DNA of 40,211 nt from Thermoanaerobaculia bacterium (GTDB taxonomy: Bacteria; Acidobacteriota; Thermoanaerobaculia; Gp7-AA8), in the NCBI GenBank assembly GCA_035632455.1, contig DASQGS010000181.1, forward strand, positions 1 through 40,211, read 5' to 3'. Positions 6,764-28,784 of the stretch are shown here, piece after piece (the first letter of the stretch is position 1; each line of letters starts with the position of its first letter). Below the pieces are notes generated by a model. The model saw only the letters and a list, made by a program, of their open reading frames with translations. It was not told the DNA's origin and searched no databases. Made by a program: the position numbers and the translations under genes.

Positions 6764-7504
6764 ATGTCCAGCGACTCTCACGAGAAATACGTTCACCGCG
6801 TCCAGGAAGAGACGAAGCGGTACACCCACGATCTGCTCGCCGAGAACCAGCGGCTGCAATTGATCGCTGAACGGCTGGAGAAGGAGTGCCGCCTTCTCGA
6901 AGAGGAAGTGGCGAGGCGCAGAGCGGAGCGCCTGCAGTTGTTGGAGCAGCTCCGCACGTTCGAGGATCAGAGCAGGACCTTCGCCGAACAGTACACCGAG
7001 GTCGAGCAGCAGAACGCCAATCTGGCGAATCTTTACGTGGCCAGCTATCGCCTGCACTCCACGCTCGACAAGAGCGAAGTGCTCGCCGCGATCCAGGAGA
7101 TCATCATCAATCTCATCGGATCGGAGGAGATCGCGATCTTTGAGCGCGCCGAAGGGAGCGACATGCTCTCGCTCGTCGCATCCGTGGGCGTCGATGAAGC
7201 GGAGTACTCGGCCGTCCGCCTCGGTCGCGGAGTCATCGGATCGGCGGCTGCAACGGGCGAGATCTACATCCGAACAAACGGAGCGGCCGCTGTCCAGGAG
7301 AACACCGGGCTGACGGCTTGCATCCCTCTGGTGCTTCAGGGACGCGTGCTTGGAGTCGTCGCGGTGTTCCGGCTTCTCCAGCAGAAGAGCGGCGTGGAGG
7401 CCATCGATCGGGAGTTGTTCGATCTATTGGGCACTCACGCGGCCGTTGCCCTTTATTGCACGACGTTGCACGCCCAGATTGCGGGAGCGGCGCTGGCATC
7501 ATGA
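6764..7504 (+). CDS. Coiled-coil plus GAF-domain protein
   Basis: 246 aa. The N-terminal ~90 aa are heptad-rich and charged (LLAENQRLQLIAERLEKECRLLEEEVARRRAERLQLLEQL). The C-terminal part is GAF-like (VLAAIQEIIINLIGSEEIAIF...GVIGSAAATGEIY...IPLVLQGRVLGVVAVF). Confidence 0.8.
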   Translation: MSSDSHEKYVHRVQEETKRYTHDLLAENQRLQLIAERLEKECRLLEEEVARRRAERLQLLEQLRTFEDQSRTFAEQYTEVEQQNANLANLYVASYRLHSTLDKSEVLAAIQEIIINLIGSEEIAIFERAEGSDMLSLVASVGVDEAEYSAVRLGRGVIGSAAATGEIYIRTNGAAAVQENTGLTACIPLVLQGRVLGVVAVFRLLQQKSGVEAIDRELFDLLGTHAAVALYCTTLHAQIAGAALAS

Positions 7505-8010
7505 GCGGCCTCGGCGAGAAGATTCCAATGCCTGCCGGCTTTCCAGAGGCGCCTGACCGCGACGCGTTCACTTACCTGCTTCCCGGAAACCTGGTCGCCT
7601 CACGCGACCCGATCGTGGTGACGACGATCCTCGGTTCCTGCGTGGCTGTCTGTCTCTACGACGCGACGAGCGGAATCGGCGGGATCAACCATTTCCTTCT
7701 GCCAAAGTGGCCGGCGGCCACCGGCGGGACGCCTCGCCACGGAAGCATCGCCATTCCCAAGCTCGTGGAGCGTCTACTGGCCCTCGGCGCAAACCGCGGC
7801 AGGCTCGAAGCGAAAGTTTTTGGAGGCGCTGCGGTCCTGCAGCAGTTGGCCCGTGCCGTCTATCACCTCGGCGCGCAAAACGCGGATGTGGCGATCCAGA
7901 TCCTCGATCGCGCAGGGATTCCGATCGTGGCAAACGATACCGGCGGTCATCGCGGCCGCAAGCTGATCTTTCACACCGAGGGCGGTCTCGCCTTCGTCAA
8001 GTACCTCTGA
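7501..8010 (+). CDS. cheD: Chemoreceptor glutamine deamidase CheD
   Basis: ATG 7501 overlaps the upstream stop (ATGA). Reads ...IVVTTILGSCVAVCLYD...GGINHFLLP...EAKVFGGA...IVANDTGGHRGRKLIFHTEGG, the CheD signature. Confidence 0.9.
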   Translation: MSGLGEKIPMPAGFPEAPDRDAFTYLLPGNLVASRDPIVVTTILGSCVAVCLYDATSGIGGINHFLLPKWPAATGGTPRHGSIAIPKLVERLLALGANRGRLEAKVFGGAAVLQQLARAVYHLGAQNADVAIQILDRAGIPIVANDTGGHRGRKLIFHTEGGLAFVKYL

Positions 8011-26496: not shown

Positions 26497-26672
26497 GCCG
26501 CGCGCGTGCATGTCTCGGCAGTTTGCGGGATTCGATCGAGCAGGGCGATCAATTCCTCGTCGACGTCGCTGGGCTCCAGGAAGCCGGCGAGCGCGACATA
26601 ATTGGTGTGGACACTCTCGATCTCGATTGCCGTGAGCATTTGACCGCCGCTGATTGTATATTCACTCATCAT
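26493..26672 (-). CDS. Possible small ORF (59 aa), first gene of the minus-strand GT2 operon
   Basis: [59 protein letters not shown]. This is the only part of ORF 26493..27221 that is not antisense to the SDR gene. It is translationally coupled (ATGA) to the zinc-ribbon ORF. No homology recognised, and its ATG overlaps the divergent SDR ATG. Confidence 0.35.
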
Positions 26673-27459
26673 GGACCTCGGAATCCGCAATCGCATCGCC
26701 ATGGTCGCCGCAGCCAGCCAGGGGCTCGGGCGTGCCGCCGCTGAGGCCCTGGCGCGCGAGGGGTGCCGGGTATCGATCTGCTCGCGCTCGCTGGAGTCGC
26801 TCGAAGACGCCCGGCGCGCGATCGAGGCGCGCGGCAGCGACGTGCTGGCCGTGTCGTGCGACGTGACGAAGGCGGACGATCTCCGGCGGTGGTTTGATGC
26901 GACCATCGAGCGCTTCGGGCAGGTCGACATCCTGGTGACGAACACGGGCGGGCCGCCGGCAGCGAGATTCCTCGACCTGTCAGAAGAGGATTGGCGGCAG
27001 GGCATCGACTCCACGCTGATGAATGTCGTGCGGCTCTCGGGCCTCGTCATCCCCGACATGAGGAAGCGGAAGTGGGGGCGGATCGTCCACATCACTTCGC
27101 TCGTCGCGAAGCAGCCGACGGAACTGATCACCATCTCCAGCACGCTGCGAGCCGGCATCTCGGCCCTCACGAAGACGCTCGCCGACCAAGTGGCAAGGGA
27201 CGGCATCCTGGTCAACGCCATCCTGCCGGGCCACTACCTGACCGGCCGCCAGCAGCATCTCGCCGAGATCCGCGCGAAGGAGCAGGGAATCACACCGGAG
27301 CAATATCTCGAAAAAGCCGTCGAATCGATTCCGCTCGGTCGCTACGGGCGCCCGGAGGAGTTGGGCGATGCCATCGCGTTTCTCTGCAGCGAGCGCGCCA
27401 GTTTCATCACCGGCACCAGCATGCAGGTCGACGGCGGACAGATAAGGTCCACGTTTTGA
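26671..27459 (+). CDS. SDR-family oxidoreductase (3-oxoacyl-ACP-reductase-like)
   Basis: [26 protein letters not shown] (Gly-rich NAD(P) motif), ILVTNTGG, and S...[10 protein letters not shown] in place of the YxxxK region, then VNAILPG. Confidence 0.9.
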
Positions 27460-27661
27460 TATGGACTGCGGCGGCTCGCCGCGTATGGACTGCGGCGGCG
27501 AGGCCGCCGCTTTCGATGACCACTGCGCAAGTCCACAGTTTCTTGAGCGTGCCGATTTAAGCTCGCTGCGTAAGCTCACGACCGCCGCTTCGTGGCGCGG
27601 AAAGCGGCAGCCTAGCTGCCGCAGTCCATATGACGGCGGCGAGCCGCCGCAGTCCATATGG
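27459..27661. repeat. 203-nt compound palindrome filling the SDR/tsaD convergent junction
   Basis: There are three stem segments. ATATGGACTGCGGCGGCTCGCCG (27459-27481) pairs perfectly with 27637-27659 (23 bp). TATGGACTGCGGC (27484-27496) pairs perfectly with 27618-27630 (13 bp). GCCGCCGCTTTCG (27503-27515) pairs imperfectly with 27598-27611. Each arm carries TATGGACTGCGGCGG twice. The central loop is about 82 nt. Confidence 0.92.
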
Positions 27662-28720
27662 TCACCCGATGCGCGACCTGGCGGCGACGCGCCGCGGATC
27701 CTGCGCTTCGTTGCTCCGCTGCAATCCGGCGAACGCGATCATGGCGGCGTTGTCGGTGCAGTAGCGCTTTTCAGGCAGGCGAACGATGAGGCCGCGCTGC
27801 CTGCCCCATGCCGCCATGCGGTCGCGCAACACGCCGTTGGCGGCAACGCCGCCTGCGATCACGACCTCGGCCGGCATCGGCTCGCGCTCGCGCAAGAGGC
27901 GCGACCAAATCGTCTCCAGCCGGTCGAACAGTTGCTCGAACAGAGCGTCCTGGAATGTCGCGCAGAAGACTGCGAGGTTGCCGGCGCCGGAAGCGTCTGC
28001 CTGCGCGTGGATGCCGTGTGTGCGCGCCAGCCGGATCGCTCCGGCCTTGATGCCGGAATACGAGAAATCGACCGAGTCGTCCTTGAACTGCGGAACCGGG
28101 AAGGGGAAGCGGCCTCGATCGGCCGTGCCGGCTCGGGCGTGCTTCTCGATTTGTGGACCGCCCGGGTAAGGTAGCCCGATGAACTTCGCCACTTTGTCGA
28201 ACGTCTCGCCGATGGCGTCGTCGCGAGTACGGTTGAGCATTGTCACGGCCGGCGCCTTGCCGTCTTCGCCGCGCCGGATGTCGTAGATCGACGAGTGGCC
28301 GCCGGAGATGACGAGGCTGAGGAATCGCGCCGGAAGTGGACTCGCCGGCCCCTCGGTTTGCAGGTACGGGGAGAAGATGTGGCCTTCGAGATGGTTCACC
28401 GAGATCAGCGGAATACCGAGGCCGTAGGCCAGGCCCTGGGCTCCCGCCACGCCGACCATAAGAGCACCGATCAAACCGGGGCCGGAGGTGACGGCGACTG
28501 CGTCGACGCCGTTCCAGTTCGTGGCGCTATCGTCGAGAGCGCGCCGAATCAGCGGGAAGAGATGTTGCAGATGCTCGCGCGAGGCGATCTCGGGAACGAC
28601 GCCGCCGAAGGGCTGATGGCGGTCGATCTGCGAGGCGATCAGGTTGACGAGGACCGAGCCATCGCGCTCGAGCAGCGCGACCGAAGTTTCGTCGCAAGAG
28701 GTTTCGATGCCGAGGATCAT
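27662..28720 (-). CDS. tsaD: tRNA N6-adenosine threonylcarbamoyltransferase TsaD
   Basis: ATG 28720 gives MILGIETSCDETSVALL...HLEGHIF...GGVAAN..., the canonical Kae1/TsaD signature. Confidence 0.95.
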   Translation of the reverse strand: MILGIETSCDETSVALLERDGSVLVNLIASQIDRHQPFGGVVPEIASREHLQHLFPLIRRALDDSATNWNGVDAVAVTSGPGLIGALMVGVAGAQGLAYGLGIPLISVNHLEGHIFSPYLQTEGPASPLPARFLSLVISGGHSSIYDIRRGEDGKAPAVTMLNRTRDDAIGETFDKVAKFIGLPYPGGPQIEKHARAGTADRGRFPFPVPQFKDDSVDFSYSGIKAGAIRLARTHGIHAQADASGAGNLAVFCATFQDALFEQLFDRLETIWSRLLREREPMPAEVVIAGGVAANGVLRDRMAAWGRQRGLIVRLPEKRYCTDNAAMIAFAGLQRSNEAQDPRRVAARSRIG

Positions 28721-28747
28721 GAGAAGCAAGTGTTCGAACTGAAGGAA

Positions 28748-28784
28748 GCTCACGCGAAGACGCGAAGGCGCGAAACGACCTCAG
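28748..28784. repeat. Half-copy of the CACGCGAAGACGCGAAGG family in the tsaD/valS divergent spacer
   Basis: GCTCACGCGAAGACGCGAAGGCGCGAAACGACCTCAG. The first 27 nt are identical to 317-343 and both copies end in ACC(C)TCAG. No inverted partner nearby. Confidence 0.75.

Follow-up and report, generated by a model that had tools for sequence, protein, structure and literature searches.

A palindrome between convergent SDR and tsaD genes of a Thermoanaerobaculia bacterium: a probable cluster of four units from a dispersed REP-like repeat family

Introduction

What is a palindrome of 203 nt that fills the space between two convergent genes from one stop codon to the other? The question is raised by a contig of an uncultured Thermoanaerobaculia bacterium of the Acidobacteriota (DASQGS010000181.1 in GenBank assembly GCA_035632455.1, here C181), the whole of which, 40,211 nt, constitutes the window analyzed. 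The palindrome, at 27459-27661, lies between a short-chain dehydrogenase/reductase (SDR) gene and tsaD. From its size and nested organization, the initial annotation likened it to a miniature inverted-repeat transposable element (MITE) or a structured RNA gene. The source genome is a metagenome-assembled genome (MAG) of 4.2 Mb in 540 contigs, 82% complete and with a GC content of 63.9%. As described below, the palindrome almost certainly belongs to a dispersed repeat family, named here by its head, TATGGACT. The locus itself is probably a cluster of four units of that family, which resembles repetitive extragenic palindromic (REP) sequences, bacterial interspersed mosaic elements (BIMEs) and REP doublets forming hairpins (REPINs), and is neither a one-off structure nor a gene.

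Results

The 15-mer at the head of the repeat occurs 71 times exactly in the source genome, 139 times with no more than one mismatch, and 189 times with no more than two. These 189 matches are spread over 103 contigs and form 126 clusters, and the reversed pattern, employed as a control, gives no match in the same genome. When the 203 nt were aligned against the genome with BLAST, each arm was covered by 50-99 other genomic copies and the centre by three. The comparison of arms and centre by blastn that the initial annotation proposed thus identifies the arms as multi-copy, that is, as a dispersed repeat. A sporadic local duplication, which the same annotation reserved for an element that is unique and absent elsewhere, is contradicted by arms that represent a high-copy dispersed family. 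About a fifth of the clusters are positioned within roughly 150 nt of a contig end, so that the true copy number must be higher and the repeat helps to fragment the assembly of the MAG.

An exact-pattern scan of 185,579 species genomes placed the unit almost exclusively in MAGs that bear a Thermoanaerobaculia or Acidobacteriota label, apart from single contigs of three other phyla. Copy counts in 124 genomes of the same taxonomic family are mostly 0-2 but reach 247, 72, 61, 43, 41, 36, 35 and 32 in others, and the reversed-pattern controls give 0-2 matches. Each high-copy genome displays its own head variant, namely TATGGAGT in G133 and G044, TTTGGACT in G101, and TCTGGACT in part of G040. In G133, which is assembled in five contigs, there are nine uniform doublet copies of 112 nt with a head spacing of exactly 97 nt.

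The SDR open reading frame (ORF; 26671..27459, plus strand) ends with a TGA stop at 27457..27459, and the first repeat unit begins at the adjoining base. The tsaD ORF (27662..28753, minus strand) ends with a TGA on the minus strand at 27662..27664, 3 nt from the last unit. Both identities are confirmed by Pfam. The 202-nt gap between these convergent genes is wholly filled by the nested inverted repeat. In relatives and in other genera the homology of the SDR and of tsaD extends to the same stop codons, and thus both stops are ancestral and neither protein has been truncated by the element.

The stop-to-stop coordinates and the general anatomy given in the initial annotation are confirmed. The outer arms (27459-27482 and 27636-27659) are 24 nt long and 100% complementary, and the inner arms (27484-27514 and 27600-27630) span 31 nt at 90% complementarity, pairing without a mismatch over their first 13 nt. 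The 15-mer TATGGACTGCGGCGG had been assigned twice to each arm. It is indeed present at four sites, exactly at 27460, 27484 and 27644 (minus strand) and with one mismatch at 27616 (minus strand), such that the palindrome holds three exact copies and one near copy, where shuffled sequences would be expected to give 0.07 matches. The predicted RNA fold of the palindrome is ∼-140 kcal/mol on either strand, with z-scores of -10.9 and -10.6 relative to dinucleotide shuffles. The centre (27516-27597) is, as had been noted, lower in GC content than the arms (58.5% versus 67-72%; the contig averages 63%). Nor is it unique: conserved tails of the family make up ∼15 nt at its beginning (GATGACCACTGCGCA) and ∼15 nt at its end, three other copies (on C212, C216 and C522) align over its whole length at 71-76% identity, and strong divergence is confined to about 27530-27590.

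The unit of the family is ∼32 nt long and is composed of the head TATGGA(C/G)T (TATGGACT), an 8-bp GC stem (GCGGCGGC/GCCGCCGC), a loop of 2-4 nt and TTT(C/T). Four such units can be delineated in the palindrome. The truncated outer left unit (27460..27482, plus strand) is characterized by the head TATGGACT (27460-27467), the 5' stem GCGGCGGC (27468-27475), a TC loop (27476-27477) and, as the 3' stem, GCCGC only (27478-27482, plus strand), without the TTTC tail. The inner left unit (27484..27529, plus strand), designated A-type, has its head at 27484-27491, its 5' stem at 27492-27499, a GAG loop at 27500-27502, its 3' stem at 27503-27510, TTTC at 27511-27514 and the conserved A tail GATGACCACTGCGCA at 27515-27529. 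In BLAST, 92-99 other genomic copies cover 27484-27513, a number that drops to 22-28 where the A tail ends. There follows the diverged doublet centre (27530..27590, no strand), with a GC content of 55.7% and no conservation among copies. The inner right unit (27591..27630, minus strand), designated B-type, carries a compensated A-T variant of the stem. Its head is the reverse complement of 27623-27630 and its 5' stem, GCGGCAGC, that of 27615-27622. After a TAG loop come the 3' stem GCTGCCGC and TTTC, which are the reverse complements of 27604-27611 and 27600-27603, respectively, and then the B tail (CGCGCCACGAAG...). The truncated outer right unit (27635..27658, minus strand) reads TATGGACT, GCGGCGGC, TC and GCCGCC, and matches the outer left unit perfectly in inverted orientation. 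The "three tiers" of the palindrome are one A/B doublet (27484..27630, no strand), at 147 nt a standard example of the commonest form of the family, and one extra truncated unit stacked on each of its ends.

The stem is well maintained throughout the family, with 145 of 180 units retaining at least seven of the eight pairs, and the loops are hypervariable (TC, TT, AAG, TCG, GAG and others). One stem position holds a G-C pair in 111 units, an A-T pair in 23 and a G-T pair in 8, and another holds C-G in 139 and T-A in 4. An alignment of 104 units, pre-filtered for at least six of the eight pairs and to that extent favourable to the paired percentage, has 97.4% of its stem cells paired and three pairs changed on both sides; one position is occupied by G-C in 79 rows, A-U in 15 and G-U in 6. 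The observed covariation score was reached by none of 500 shuffles, and the slid controls collapse. The A-T variant may represent one lineage that was copied many times. The TTT after the stem is nearly invariant, the sequence there reading TTTCG, TTTTC or TTTCC. Two alternative conserved tails are found after TTTC, the A tail being G(T/A)TGACCAC..GCG and the B tail TTTTCGCGC(C/G)A..GGCA.

Most commonly the family takes the form of an inverted A/B pair of about 137 nt, capable of folding into a single long hairpin. Typing of 27 doublets gave 17 of the A/B or B/A kind, mostly 127-149 nt long, five longer A/A pairs (140-183 nt) and no B/B pair. The doublet heads in the source genome have a modal spacing of 120-126 nt, and their spacers have diverged strongly. 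On C10, C53 and C536 there is a minimal form of 34 nt, TATGGACTGCGGCGGC-TC-GCCGCCGCAGTCCATA. Single units, in plus or minus orientation, account for 76 clusters and the +- form for 28, and there are stacks of the forms ++-, +--, ++, --, +++, --- and ++--. The forms ++-, +--, ++ and -- are frequent; the symmetric ++-- cluster is found in this genome at the SDR/tsaD locus only. At no fewer than 14 loci with head-to-tail stacks, the stop-proximal unit ends after GCCGC and TATGG begins 0-1 nt later. Examples of this truncated-then-full junction are provided by C274, C236, C179, C196, C270 and C132, and the SDR side of the palindrome has exactly such a junction.

On the basis of gene calls that are crude (ORF length and GC content at third codon positions) and cover 85% of the genome, the clusters lie in 27 convergent, 22 tandem and 11 divergent junctions, as compared with 502, 1772 and 500, respectively, genome-wide. 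Of the outermost units, 37 of 104 (36%) start at a distance of 0-8 nt downstream of the stop codon of an ORF that has their own orientation and at least 100 codons, versus 2% for random intergenic positions and orientations. For 45 isolated single units away from contig ends, a gene end is located within 60 nt on the head side in 23 cases (within 10 nt in 16) and on the tail side in one. These counts define the polarity of the unit: stop codon, head, hairpin, TTTC. The palindrome between the convergent genes is, in these terms, one polar module per gene. Doublets show no preference for turning their A end or their B end to the gene (7 versus 4).

Toxin-antitoxin pairs, identified by eye from translations, are located between inverted TATGGACT units at two sites, a hicAB-like pair on C125 (7843-8461) and a ParE/RelE-like gene with its antitoxin on C487 (2729-3503). 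The units around both cassettes abut the stop codons of the outer genes.

No flanking direct repeat or target duplication was observed at the doublets of the source genome or the G133 copies that were inspected. In G101 the ends read TTTGGACT...AGTCCAAA (TTTGG...CCAAA). They are thus inverted, and the terminal bases belong to the inverted repeat and not to a duplicated TA.

No orthologous SDR/tsaD junction was found in the genomes or metagenomes searched: the source genome is the sole species of its genus in the collection searched, the two genes are on different contigs in every other genus covered, and metagenomic relatives whose tsaD is 72-77% identical have a different downstream neighbour. 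The junction after the stop of the elongation factor G (EF-G) gene in genus g52 (14 species; L084-L097) was therefore employed as a substitute for an empty SDR/tsaD site. After the EF-G stop, G133 and G112 carry the TATGGACT family 0 nt from the stop, G119 and G116 have GTAG-type REPs, G101 and G132 have heptamer-repeat hairpins, and G120, G135 and G124 have other long hairpins. Besides the TATGGACT family, at least six other hairpin families occupy this junction across the species. In G107 it is empty, with 9 nt to the stop of the convergent gene, whose counterpart in G112 (L092) owes its last seven codons and its TAG stop to the element. Varied hairpins likewise follow the SDR stop in other genera. 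Presence, absence or replacement of the family at orthologous junctions is hence observed between species, and the different hairpins at the same junctions indicate that turnover of the sites is fast and involves many families.

The source genome contains eight loci of the tyrosine (Y1) transposase domain Y1_Tnp (PF01797), and inverted TATGGACT units bracket two of them, on C149 (units at 1206 and 1975) and at a pseudogene on C291. The C149 protein scores 76 bits with the NCBI IS200/IS605 model and 19 bits with the REP-transposase model, which it does not fit. Multi-copy genes in G040 pass the NCBI model for the REP-associated tyrosine transposase (RAYT) at 81.1 bits, the cut-off being 80. They have GGGGTCAC-type repeats of their own, and at three of the four loci examined they lie within 500 nt of TATGGACT units; at one cluster per 33-100 kb, such closeness is unlikely by chance. 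A tblastn search of the source genome with the G040 RAYT gave one homologue of 41% identity, which has no flanking TATGGACT units and is split between C480 (1-187) and C405 (16515-17261), the contig ends of which overlap by 16 nt. A transposase link to the TATGGACT family is plausible but weak. PF01797 was searched for in the source genome, in five high-copy genomes and in the whole taxonomic family, and no matching transposase was found.

Larger autonomous elements were also considered and rejected, as widely spaced head pairs enclose toxin-antitoxin genes, repeat doublets, a Y1 gene or ordinary genes. Between two of the 112-nt copies in G133 there is a 2.4-kb segment of low GC content that encodes a 791-residue protein (L066, G133:C5:1593600-1596850) and looks like foreign DNA acquired at a repeat site.

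Other repeat systems were encountered alongside. A second composite family of about 18 copies in the source genome is composed of GCCGCCGAAGGCGGC, a GTAG-tagged hairpin GTAGCCCCCGCCTTCAGGCGGGGG and then GAGCCCGCGAAGCGGGCG. Its sites are on C149 (1230-1330 and 1880-1960), C274, C10, C152, C209, C241, C302, C337, C346, C405, C444, C472 and C510. It directly flanks two closely related Y1 genes, those of C149 and C274, and this layout is the classical REPtron arrangement. Further Y1 genes of the genome (on C116, C295, C508, C61 and C439) have distinct hairpin families of their own, for example, GTAGCCGGTGG... and GTAGTCCCGTAGGGAC; with a distinct family for each gene, the genome hosts at least 5-6 separate REP-like systems. 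The RAYT-model gene of G040 encodes 320-340 amino acids and exists in about ten copies (L035, L036, L040, L041); it is accompanied by inverted repeats of the GGGGTCAC type and, on its flanks, by arrays of short tandem repeats. A large share of these copies are at contig ends, and one adjoins an IS110-like transposase gene. RAYT genes are typically single-copy, and the multi-copy genes of G040 are thus unusual.

Discussion

The closest resemblance of the TATGGACT family is to the REP and BIME sequences of Enterobacteria and Pseudomonas and to REPINs with their RAYT (Bertels and Rainey 2011, PMC3116915; Di Nocera et al. 2013, PMC3733652). Both are short, GC-rich, imperfect palindromes in more than 100 copies that are extragenic, and the ∼32-nt unit lies within the 20-40 nt expected of a REP. 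Both occur singly, as inverted dimers (20-100 bp apart), as dimers whose partners differ and in clusters; both have compensated stems, lack a target duplication and are patchily distributed among species. In both cases a genome holds several families and carries Y1 genes, some of which the repeats bracket. Dimers of unlike REPs, REP clusters and REPs nested in other palindromes, a nesting that the TATGGACT family shares, have been described previously, and inverted-repeat families that flank tyrosine transposases are known in Acidobacteria (PMC3733652). The hosts differ in that those of the REPs and BIMEs compared are Proteobacteria, whereas the TATGGACT family resides in Thermoanaerobaculia-like Acidobacteriota. 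Furthermore, the TATGGACT family, unlike REPs and BIMEs, is strictly polar toward the upstream stop and has a conserved TTT after its stem. With respect to REPINs, in which two inverted REPs and their spacer are copied as a unit, the modal head spacing of 120-126 nt in the source genome and the fixed 97-nt spacing in G133 argue for such copying, whereas the spacers of the source genome are strongly diverged.

The nearest published analogue, from the same phylum, is provided by the terminal inverted repeat (TIR) families with genes for TIR-associated tyrosine transposases (TIRYT; TIRtrons), for example, those of Koribacter versatilis (PMC3733652). Like the TATGGACT family, they are untagged, some are self-complementary, and they form dimers and clusters; they flank RAYT-like genes. 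A motif of the GGGGWSAS type known from publication (GGGGTCAC) is present in the repeats that belong to the RAYT-like genes of G040. The TIR families described in print are of moderate size and directly flank the transposase (PMC3733652), whereas the TATGGACT units lie outside the other repeats and are far more numerous. Placement near stop codons also has a parallel. In Escherichia coli, REPs near termination codons reportedly affect translation and the fate of the mRNA, as Liang, Rudd and Deutscher are said to have described in Mol Cell in 2015. In those stop-proximal REPs, as in the TATGGACT family, the hairpin lies within a few nucleotides of the upstream stop. Such placement is a feature of a subset of E. 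coli REPs, whereas in the TATGGACT family it is dominant and has a fixed orientation.

Several observations weigh against the assignment to REP-like elements and against the transposase that it would call for. The TATGGACT family lacks the GTAG or CGTC tag that defines the published REP superfamilies in the sense of Di Nocera (2013) and Nunvar (2010): neither is present at the end of the unit, where the conserved feature is the head TATGGA(C/G)T. GTAG is found within 15 nt upstream of only 18 of 112 outermost units, where it overlaps TAG stop codons; since these stops explain the enrichment, GTAG as a cleavage tag upstream of the head was rejected. GTAG is, by contrast, carried by the other REP families of the source genome. 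Among the loci examined, no single-copy transposase is immediately flanked by the TATGGACT family, unlike the arrangement of REPINs and RAYTs. At the two Y1 loci of the source genome that TATGGACT units bracket, other hairpin families intervene. On C149 the immediate flanks of the Y1 gene are other hairpins, namely GCCGCCGAAGGCGGC and the GTAG-tagged REP GTAGCCCCCGCCTTCAGGCGGGGG (10-18 genomic copies), and the TATGGACT units are positioned outside of them; its close paralogue on C274 has the inner repeats only. The Y1 genes examined in G133 (two of three loci), G124 (two of six), G111 and G101 are without flanking units, and the same holds for the weak RayT-like genes of G111, G101 and G133. 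Moreover, Y1 genes occur in 114 of the 124 genomes of the taxonomic family irrespective of copy number, and having one does not tell a high-copy genome from one with zero copies. Toxin-antitoxin pairs, further repeat doublets (C334, C443) and a foreign gene lie between units just as Y1 genes do, and the bracketing may only reflect units that hug the stops of the outer genes. The simplest reading is that, with units at the outer stops, whatever else the gap contains falls between them. No transposase is convincingly tied to the TATGGACT family. Finally, the unit is not a canonical terminator, having only 3-4 T after the stem, whereas the lineage does possess canonical terminators in which T6-9 follows a GC hairpin. 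A scan for canonical intrinsic terminators (a GC stem-loop with at least five T in eight bases) flagged none of the four units.

The idea that the units were moved by a Y1 transposase is accordingly held tentatively, at somewhat less than even strength. An HUH (Y1) tyrosine transposase of the RAYT or IS200 type would copy the units in trans via a single-stranded hairpin. Such transposition would leave no duplication, and cutting and joining at fixed sites could yield head-to-tail stacks. The perfect outer arms of the palindrome could be the product of two insertions of the commonest "TC-loop" unit or, alternatively, of template switching across the hairpin, which would turn an asymmetric ++- cluster into a symmetric one. 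Once in place, the element would furnish both convergent mRNAs with a very stable 3' hairpin that could protect against exonucleases and serve as a barrier to read-through. Judged from position and predicted folding, the case for and against its acting as a 3'-end hairpin for both mRNAs is about evenly balanced.

The most serious rival is that the units are 3'-end modules selected by the host and spread without a dedicated transposase. A strong hairpin immediately downstream of the stop would be favoured in the lineage, above all where genes converge; the units would spread and become homogenized through recombination, gene conversion or template switching, and many unrelated families would compete for the sites. 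Indeed, the same convergent junction has a different hairpin family in almost every g52 species, with other genera behaving likewise, and the strict head-to-stop polarity, the nearly invariant TTT after the stem and the failure to find a matching transposase all agree with this view. More than 120 near-identical, unlinked units, genome-specific heads and the nine uniform copies of G133, however, resemble bursts of copying, which homologous recombination alone does not readily give, and the units also occupy divergent and tandem junctions. Host selection alone is thus regarded as an unlikely explanation. The idea of a sporadic local inverted duplication without wider meaning draws on the ++-- layout with perfect outer arms, which is unique in the genome; it is refuted by the copy counts, all four units being members of a genome-wide family, and retains practically no probability.

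A classical MITE would be a deletion derivative of an insertion sequence, with TATGGACTGCGGCGG as its TIRs and with a DDE transposase that duplicates TA, as IS630/Tc1-type enzymes do. The inverted ends, the length of 112-147 nt, the high copy number and the T-A at both extremities in the source genome are what such an element would display. Yet the second base varies by genome and stays inverted, as the G101 ends demonstrate, and the inspected copies lack the target-site duplication around the TIRs. A transposase-encoding parent with the same ends was not recovered among the head pairs of the source genome, G133 or G101: those 0.4-3 kb apart enclose no DDE transposase, in a search that was not exhaustive across genomes. 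The units also occur singly and in head-to-tail stacks, and each putative terminal repeat folds on itself. MITEs of the Correia (NEMIS), ERIC and RUP types are transcribed together with adjacent genes, and their RNA forms long hairpins. Like the element described here, they are inverted repeats of 100-150 nt; they have conserved interiors and target duplications (TA for Correia), neither of which is present in the TATGGACT family. A classical MITE is therefore considered improbable. Less probable still, and by a good deal, is a structured small-RNA gene or cis-regulatory RNA in the SDR/tsaD gap. The fold is very stable on both strands, and there are weak Rfam matches to long-hairpin models. 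These scores are far below threshold (53.8 bits against 197 for MIR8622 and 31.7 against 74 for BTH_s1, the best matches); with permissive E-value thresholds, nothing reached a gathering threshold and the matches were to generic long-hairpin models. No promoter-like site was found in the palindrome, conservation among more than 20 doublets is lowest in the centre, and a structure equally good on both strands is what is expected of a DNA palindrome. Of the two comparisons drawn in the initial annotation, the one with mobile elements holds insofar as this is a dispersed repeat of the mobile type, although not a classical MITE, and the one with an RNA gene finds no support.

A separate candidate for a small RNA was noticed in relatives (L098-L103, and also L011 and L015). 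A conserved non-coding unit of ∼110 nt follows the tsaD stop (for example, L100:3527-3640) and reads AACCTTTCC..GTGAGCG..GATCTCCTACCCCTCTC, followed by a GC hairpin and T6-9. In the source genome this unit is found away from tsaD, on C153 (∼7500-7680), opposite in orientation to the neighbouring epimerase gene; it thus behaves as an independent transcription unit. By its sequence, the AACCTTTCC/GATCTCCTACCCCTCTC unit is a small-RNA candidate with a C/U-rich motif that resembles an anti-Shine-Dalgarno sequence. A search of Rfam with this unit found nothing.

Conclusions

The SDR/tsaD locus itself appears to be ordinary repeat DNA rather than a new RNA gene, and the repeats account for part of the fragmentation of this MAG assembly. 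The TATGGACT family extends REP-like elements to uncultured Acidobacteriota of the Thermoanaerobaculia type, with a signature outside of the GTAG and CGTC classes and a measurable polarity (head 0-8 nt after the stop; single units 23 to 1). This polarity and the turnover of the sites bear on how REP-like elements choose their sites and on their role for the host. A more speculative proposal, which we regard as doubtful, is that the family is a polar, stop-codon-anchored mobile "3'-end cassette" whose insertion, rather than subsequent selection alone, would be steered to the first few nucleotides past the stop and into the orientation of transcription. Possible cues are the translating or terminating machinery and the single-stranded DNA that gene ends expose. 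If true, the family would be one among many mutually unrelated hairpin families of Acidobacteriota contending for, and displacing one another from, shared sites, and the 3' ends of genes would constitute a dedicated and rapidly turning-over niche for mobile hairpins.

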